A stretch of 64,000 nt of DNA from Escherichia coli (GTDB lineage: Bacteria > Pseudomonadota > Gammaproteobacteria > Enterobacterales > Enterobacteriaceae). The DNA lies in the NCBI RefSeq assembly GCF_003334385.1, contig NZ_QOWN01000024.1; one strand, 5' to 3'. A program made the position numbers and the translations under genes. Of this stretch, positions 61,729 through 64,000 are shown in pieces. The notes below the pieces were generated by a model. It had not been told where the DNA came from and made no database searches. It saw only the letters and a list, made by a program, of their open reading frames with translations. The first letter of the stretch is position 1. The number at the start of each line of letters is the position of its first letter.

Positions 61729-63922
<2,194 letters not shown>

Positions 63923-64000
63923 CCATAAGCGCTAACTTAAGGGTTGAACCATCTGAAGAATGCGACGCCTCGGTGCCTCGTTAAGACGATGCCTCGCGTT
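63923..64000. mobile_element. terminus of an IS186-like insertion sequence (IS4 family), continuing beyond the window
   Basis: cataagcgctaacttaagggttgaaccatctgaagaatgcgacgcctcggtgcctcgttaagacgatg matches the remembered IS186 terminal inverted repeat CATAAGCGCTAACTTAAGGGTTG and adjacent end sequence; only 78 bp visible. Confidence 0.6.

Follow-up and report, generated by a model that had tools for sequence, protein, structure and literature searches.

IS186 is known from K-12 as the copies IS186A, IS186B and IS186C, with IS421 as an isoform, and in E. coli B it inserts at a site within the lon promoter that is a hot spot (SaiSree et al. 2001, as cited in PMC3045373 and PMC11251521). Mobile elements have also been described around the glpFK genes, where the operon, its glpF left intact, is switched on by an IS5 that lies upstream of the promoter (Zhang and Saier; described in PMC5493358 and PMC12844343), and where a transposon at the end of glpF raises glpK expression in a published glpK-constitutive allele. 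Loss of GlpF itself reduces uptake of As(III) and Sb(III) and restores arsenite resistance in an ars-deleted strain (PMC1440775, which describes the glpF disruption strain OSBR1 of Sanders et al. 1997).

We compared these systems with a locus at one end of a 64-kb window (the whole stretch of DNA analysed, 64,000 nt), a piece of E. coli chromosome that extends from yihA to glpF in the same gene order as K-12 and which ends inside IS186 sequence interrupting glpF. As in the K-12 copies of IS186, the 77 visible bases are 100% identical, repeat included, and the target is GC-rich with an end in a C run, whereas the location at glpF codons 61-64 is new, the G-run half of GGGG-N6-CCCC is replaced by GCGCCGG, and one end is seen here. 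The lon promoter insertions likewise cause loss of function at a GC-rich target by an element that is a frequent spontaneous mutagen, but they recur at a promoter hot spot, whereas here the insertion divides a coding sequence, at a position where none of the other genomes searched has IS186.

With the IS5 insertions our locus has in common that an insertion sequence changes the glpFK operon; activation of the kind outlined in those sources does not apply, as we have IS186 here, within the glpF coding sequence, where it destroys glpF. The glpK-constitutive allele likewise has its mobile element within glpF, upstream of glpK, but it is engineered, lies near the glpF 3' end and has demonstrated outward expression, whereas here 686 nt separate IS186 from glpK downstream and our scans detected no promoter. 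OSBR1 is comparable in that GlpF is lost, and the loss of As(III)/Sb(III) uptake set out in PMC1440775 would be expected here too, but OSBR1 is a laboratory construct in an ars-deleted background. The last comparison is an IS186 in the glpK-glpX spacer of SCU-104, PSJ-12, ETEC1731 and WS4437A-1, which is the same element in the same operon and, for SCU-104, in the same lineage; unlike ours, it sits between genes, with glpF and glpK unbroken and glpX set apart, its transposase runs against glpK and glpX in the orientation opposite to that seen here, and its site is empty in the window.

The features at this end of the window are as follows.

59741-60487, minus strand: fpr.
60584-61594, minus strand: glpX, class II fructose-1,6-bisphosphatase, intact and third in the glpFKX operon (open reading frame; collinear with annotated K-12 glpX).
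61665-61676, no strand assigned: GGGGTTGCCCCC, a consensus target for IS186 between glpK and glpX, unoccupied (window sequence).
61729-63237, minus strand: glpK, glycerol kinase, intact (502-aa protein; annotation of homologous regions).
63260-63923, minus strand: glpF 3' remnant with codons 62-281 and the stop codon (nt 183-846), a pseudogene fragment lacking a start codon (K-12 comparison and translation).
63454, minus strand: private C>T, sense GGC>AGC, GlpF Gly218Ser (the sole difference from K-12 in 60600-63924).
63914-63923, no strand assigned: predicted copy of the 10-bp target duplication GCCGGAAACC, glpF nt 183-192 in the sense direction (analogy with seven reference copies and the K-12 native target).
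63924-64000, minus strand: right end (IRR) of IS186/IS421, a 23-bp inverted repeat at 63924-63946 plus 54 internal bases (100% match, exact search).

The glpF-IS186 junction and its target site

A megablast search with positions 63600-64000 against 5426 complete E. coli genomes revealed that glpF identity ends at 63923/63924 in 5423 of them, with query positions 1-325 (up to window position 63924) aligning, always under annotated glpF, and coverage reaching 81% at most. The glpF-IS186 junction itself was present in none of the 5426 genomes by megablast, an exact 40-nt junction pattern had no match in species-representative genomes or metagenome contigs, and no report of a glpF::IS186 allele was found in the literature examined that mentions both IS186 and glpF. 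The allele is a private polymorphism and an ordinary insertional inactivation, made by a known element at a new, private location.

An earlier note on this DNA had named the terminal bases as an IS186 end and had proposed a sequence search of the last 78 bp. Searched alone against the same 5426 genomes, these bases (63923-64000) matched at 100% in 2142 genomes (E = 3e-32), at a median of 3 places per genome and a maximum of 22, and the matches adjoin genes annotated 'IS4-like element IS421 family transposase', IS421 being the family label under which NCBI places IS186. In all copies inspected, a distance of 171 nt separates the matching bases from the stop codon of the transposase gene, with the gene on the opposite strand in window orientation, and the 78-base end aligns to positions 2500-2578 of one annotated locus, which is the transposase-stop-proximal end. 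An exact search placed the perfect 23-bp terminal repeat CATAAGCGCTAACTTAAGGGTTG at 63924-63946, the same as both ends in seven reference copies, and positions 63947-64000 match annotated IS186 copies with 100% identity, at the end nearest the stop codon. The repeat is followed in the window by AACC, which marks the IRR, transposase-distal end, whereas the IRL end continues with TGGT. Chance similarity of the 77-base IS end was rejected on the E value and on an exact match that ends at the element's terminal nucleotide. Judged by this identity, the window end is IS186 itself and no variant, and the earlier identification was correct.

The same note had followed the glpF C-terminal frame up to ..GVSGAHLNPAV and then into the IS186 repeat, which our alignment bears out to within 1 base (63923/63924); in our translation of 63260-63923 the GlpF part begins ..VSGAHLNPAV. 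The C at 63924 is compatible both with native glpF and with the first base of the element, so the junction is ambiguous by 1 base. The visible IS bases number 77 and at most 78, which corrects the 78 bp given earlier.

To describe how IS186 inserts, we derived a rule from seven reference copies in six genomes. These copies measure 1337-1339 bp, have perfect 23-bp repeats with a 370-aa DDE transposase gene between them, and are flanked by a 10-bp target duplication in all seven cases; their targets read GG/GG-N6-CC/CC (n = 7), with slashes marking the limits of the duplicated bases, and one of the seven also has an imperfect half-site. Native K-12 glpF reads GCGC GCCGGAAACC CCTGCGG at the site. 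The flank in the window, GC/GCCGGAAACC/CC, matches the rule in its C-run half and in its register, and its other half, GCGCCGG, is GC-rich but not a G run. We take such a target to be compatible with the preference of IS186, which falls short of proof. Because all seven reference copies have a 10-bp duplication ending at the IS terminus, GCCGGAAACC is the predicted duplication. The IS break falls at glpF codon 61, and the insertion region, with the predicted duplication, covers codons 61-64. The site would be one more data point on IS186 target choice, namely a half-consensus site inside a coding region.

The source strain and its closest relative SCU-104

Comparison with K-12 GM4792 revealed identities of 98.2% over window positions 1-18542, 99.05% over 20529-36315, 99.5% over 36001-39469 and 99.97% over 39467-63924. 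Positions 1-63924 look like a recombination mosaic, and this identity profile is why we regard the source strain as a natural mosaic E. coli and no K-12 derivative. A 3.8-kb segment that K-12 and nearly all E. coli possess, reaching from within frvR to within rhaM, is missing from the window, with a clean junction at 39467-39469; the deletion removes frvX, frvB and frvA, and the junction has a 3-bp overlap and no insertion sequence. We had considered whether this gap was the rhaBAD deletion of BW25113, which would have meant a K-12 laboratory strain as the source, and rejected it, as the gap is frvR'-frvXBA-'rhaM and identity to K-12 over the first 36 kb is no higher than 98-99%.

Only one of the 5426 complete genomes, SCU-104 (NZ_CP053284.1), isolated from a rectal swab of a healthy student, has the same frvR-rhaM deletion junction, and because SCU-104 alone shares it we assigned the window to the SCU-104 lineage. 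The two differ by 8 mismatches in 33.3 kb and 6 in the other 31.6 kb, that is 14 SNPs over about 64 kb, and SCU-104 is a close relative but a different clone. Its glpF is intact, and an IS186 of its own sits in the spacer between glpK and glpX. Insertions of the ISVsa5/IS10 type are found in its yiiG and in the hslU-hslV interval, and the window is without one at least at yiiG. With 22 IS186 places on its chromosome, SCU-104 has one of the highest counts, the median in IS186-positive genomes being 3. The lineage is commensal and rich in insertion sequences, and because it is rich in IS186 a new private insertion is unsurprising; the glpF insertion adds a data point on IS186 activity in such a lineage.

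The spacer site GGGGTTGCCCCC holds an IS186 with a full junction in four genomes (the SCU-104, PSJ-12, ETEC1731 and WS4437A-1 named above), with a 10-bp duplication GGGGTTGCCC in SCU-104, which suggests a hot spot or transfer by recombination. One could read the two glp insertions together as an IS186 expansion in an SCU-104-like lineage in which glpFKX was hit independently in two sister strains, reflecting selection in the gut rather than neutral IS traffic. If true, this would mean selection for altered glycerol or metalloid uptake or for altered glpK/glpX dosage, with Gly218Ser as early pseudogene decay, but we consider it quite unlikely. We do not regard two hits in the operon of sister strains as evidence of selection, because each genome has about 20 copies and the operon contains a consensus hot spot.

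Consequences for glpF, glpK and glpX

Taken as a whole, the best explanation, and one that we hold to be probable, is that a 1.34-kb IS186 (IS4 family) transposed into glpF at codons 61-64 in a natural strain close to SCU-104. The window shows the IRR junction of an IS186 copy inserted in glpF. Because the visible end is the IRR, a transposase gene would be expected on the minus strand past position 64000, running in the same direction as glpF and glpK. The element is probably complete, and its far end (...GCGCTTATG) would be reached about 1.34 kb past the window, followed by GCCGGAAACCCCTGCGGTCAGG and by glpF from nt 193 down to nt 1. Codons 1-64 of glpF would accordingly be expected beyond the element, together with the second inverted repeat and the GCCGGAAACC repeat; for the part of the gene missing from the window, computed gene positions give codons 1-61 in place of the roughly 70 N-terminal codons estimated earlier.

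GlpF has 281 aa with NPA motifs at residues 68-70 and 203-205. We modelled the insertion as K-12 glpF nt 1-192, the SCU-104 IS186 and glpF nt 183-846, and checked the model for consistency against the last 101 nt of the window on the minus strand. The predicted N-terminal stub has 67 aa (MSQ...GVSGHKR) and is without any NPA motif. Within the IS repeat a stop codon stands in frame with the 3' remnant (...QPLS*RLWVSGAHLNPAV), so no fusion protein into the remnant can be made, and no single 281-aa polypeptide with both NPA motifs, as in a functional aquaglyceroporin of the MIP family, is encoded. Because neither fragment has both motifs and the in-frame stop precedes the remnant, the inactivation of GlpF can be read straight from the sequence, and the channel is predicted to be null. 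The interruption of glpF just upstream of glpK and the inactivation of GlpF had both been proposed in the earlier note, and our analysis confirms the one and supports the other.

With GlpF, the strain has probably lost its facilitated uptake of glycerol and As(III)/Sb(III). In annotation, glpF of the source strain should be given as a pseudogene interrupted by IS186. For this strain we predict no facilitated glycerol uptake, hence poor growth where glycerol is low, and a reduced uptake of arsenite and antimonite (PMC1440775), with glpK expression possibly altered. Lower As(III)/Sb(III) uptake is, speculatively, the only obvious selective benefit. As a biological matter, glpF::IS186 raises no new question.

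The remnant differs from K-12 glpF nt 183-846 by one base, the Gly218Ser change. None of the 5384 genomes that match a 61-mer centred on 63454 has this allele (5383 match at 98.4% and one falls in the 80-90% band). The change may reflect a dead gene that is starting to drift, a polymorphism that does no harm or an error of sequencing. One such SNP is not significant, as the 14 differences to SCU-104 lead one to expect about 0.15.

Downstream, glpK starts 22 nt past the glpF stop codon, and its 502-aa product is K-12 GlpK with no residue differing. Transcripts from the glpF promoter would have to cross the 1339-bp IS186, and their last part before the glpK start would be untranslated for about 857 nt, made up of the IS tail (171 nt), the glpF remnant (664 nt) and the spacer (22 nt). 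A long untranslated stretch favours Rho-dependent polarity. Polarity would lower the expression of glpK and glpX from the glpF promoter, and some read-through of the transposase transcript may remain. On such general grounds, glpK and glpX expression is probably reduced.

The opposite outcome, in which transcription from the transposase or from a junction promoter raises or deregulates glpK independently of GlpR and CRP, draws on the co-directional transposase, on the precedent of the glpK-constitutive transposon allele and on our scan of the sense strand from the junction to glpK, which gave no terminator-like site, intrinsic terminators included; terminator-like hits elsewhere were at background level. 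However, no sigma-70 promoter-like site was found in 63000-64000 (IRR end, junction and remnant) or on the relevant strand of the full IS186, the untranslated stretch before glpK would by general knowledge favour Rho-dependent termination of any such transcript, and no outward IS186 promoter turned up in our search of the literature; we consider activation of glpK unlikely. RNA folding of the last 101 nt was like that of shuffles (z = -0.69), which, like the lack of a terminator-like site and the precedent of the activating transposon, counts against polarity.

A larger rearrangement, in which recombination with another IS186 copy or an adjacent deletion or inversion displaced the 5' part of glpF and its promoter, would look the same at the one junction visible, and both the 22 copies in the closest relative, as many substrates for recombination, and the nearby 3.8-kb deletion already present in the lineage lend it some plausibility. 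We nevertheless think it improbable: full collinearity with SCU-104 and K-12 holds for the remainder of the 64 kb, the order beyond glpF in SCU-104 is standard (zapB, rraA, menA, hslU), and simple insertion is usual for IS186, all seven reference copies having an intact 10-bp duplication. Even so rearranged, glpF would still have been hit first by normal transposition and would be inactive either way. That the junction stands at the window edge with 77 nt of repeat, as when short-read contigs stop in repeats, and that it occurs in no other genome could also point to an artefact of assembly or population, whether a contig end in a repeat, a chimeric join or an insertion in part of the culture. 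But glpF meets the repeat precisely at its last nucleotide, and the site is GC-rich and finishes in a C run as true IS186 targets do, which a random chimera would not produce, and a contig that ends in a repeat still reflects reads spanning the junction, so that we hold an artefact to be very unlikely. Simple transposition of IS186 into glpF, with polarity on glpK and glpX, is the reading that we prefer.

Other features of the window

Identity to K-12 changes stepwise along window positions 1-63924, with a K-12-like tract spanning rha to glpF. Positions of about 18543-20528, between yihR and yihQ, have no K-12 alignment, and the SCU-104 counterpart of this segment contains a gene of the sulfite-exporter TauE/SafE family (about 18633-19508, minus strand) that is absent from K-12; yihR shows 94.8% identity to K-12. 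Four copies of naRNA4 (CssrE), a REP-derived RNA, score at or above the Rfam gathering score, at 2785-2862, 40518-40588, 40610-40680 and 49525-49602, and the other RNAs in the window are CsrC (291-544), ES222 (7470-7577), STnc370 (9467-9535) and ES036 (54607-54648). The SECIS of fdoG lies at 35206-35264 and, like naRNA4 and these other RNAs, is an ordinary feature of E. coli.
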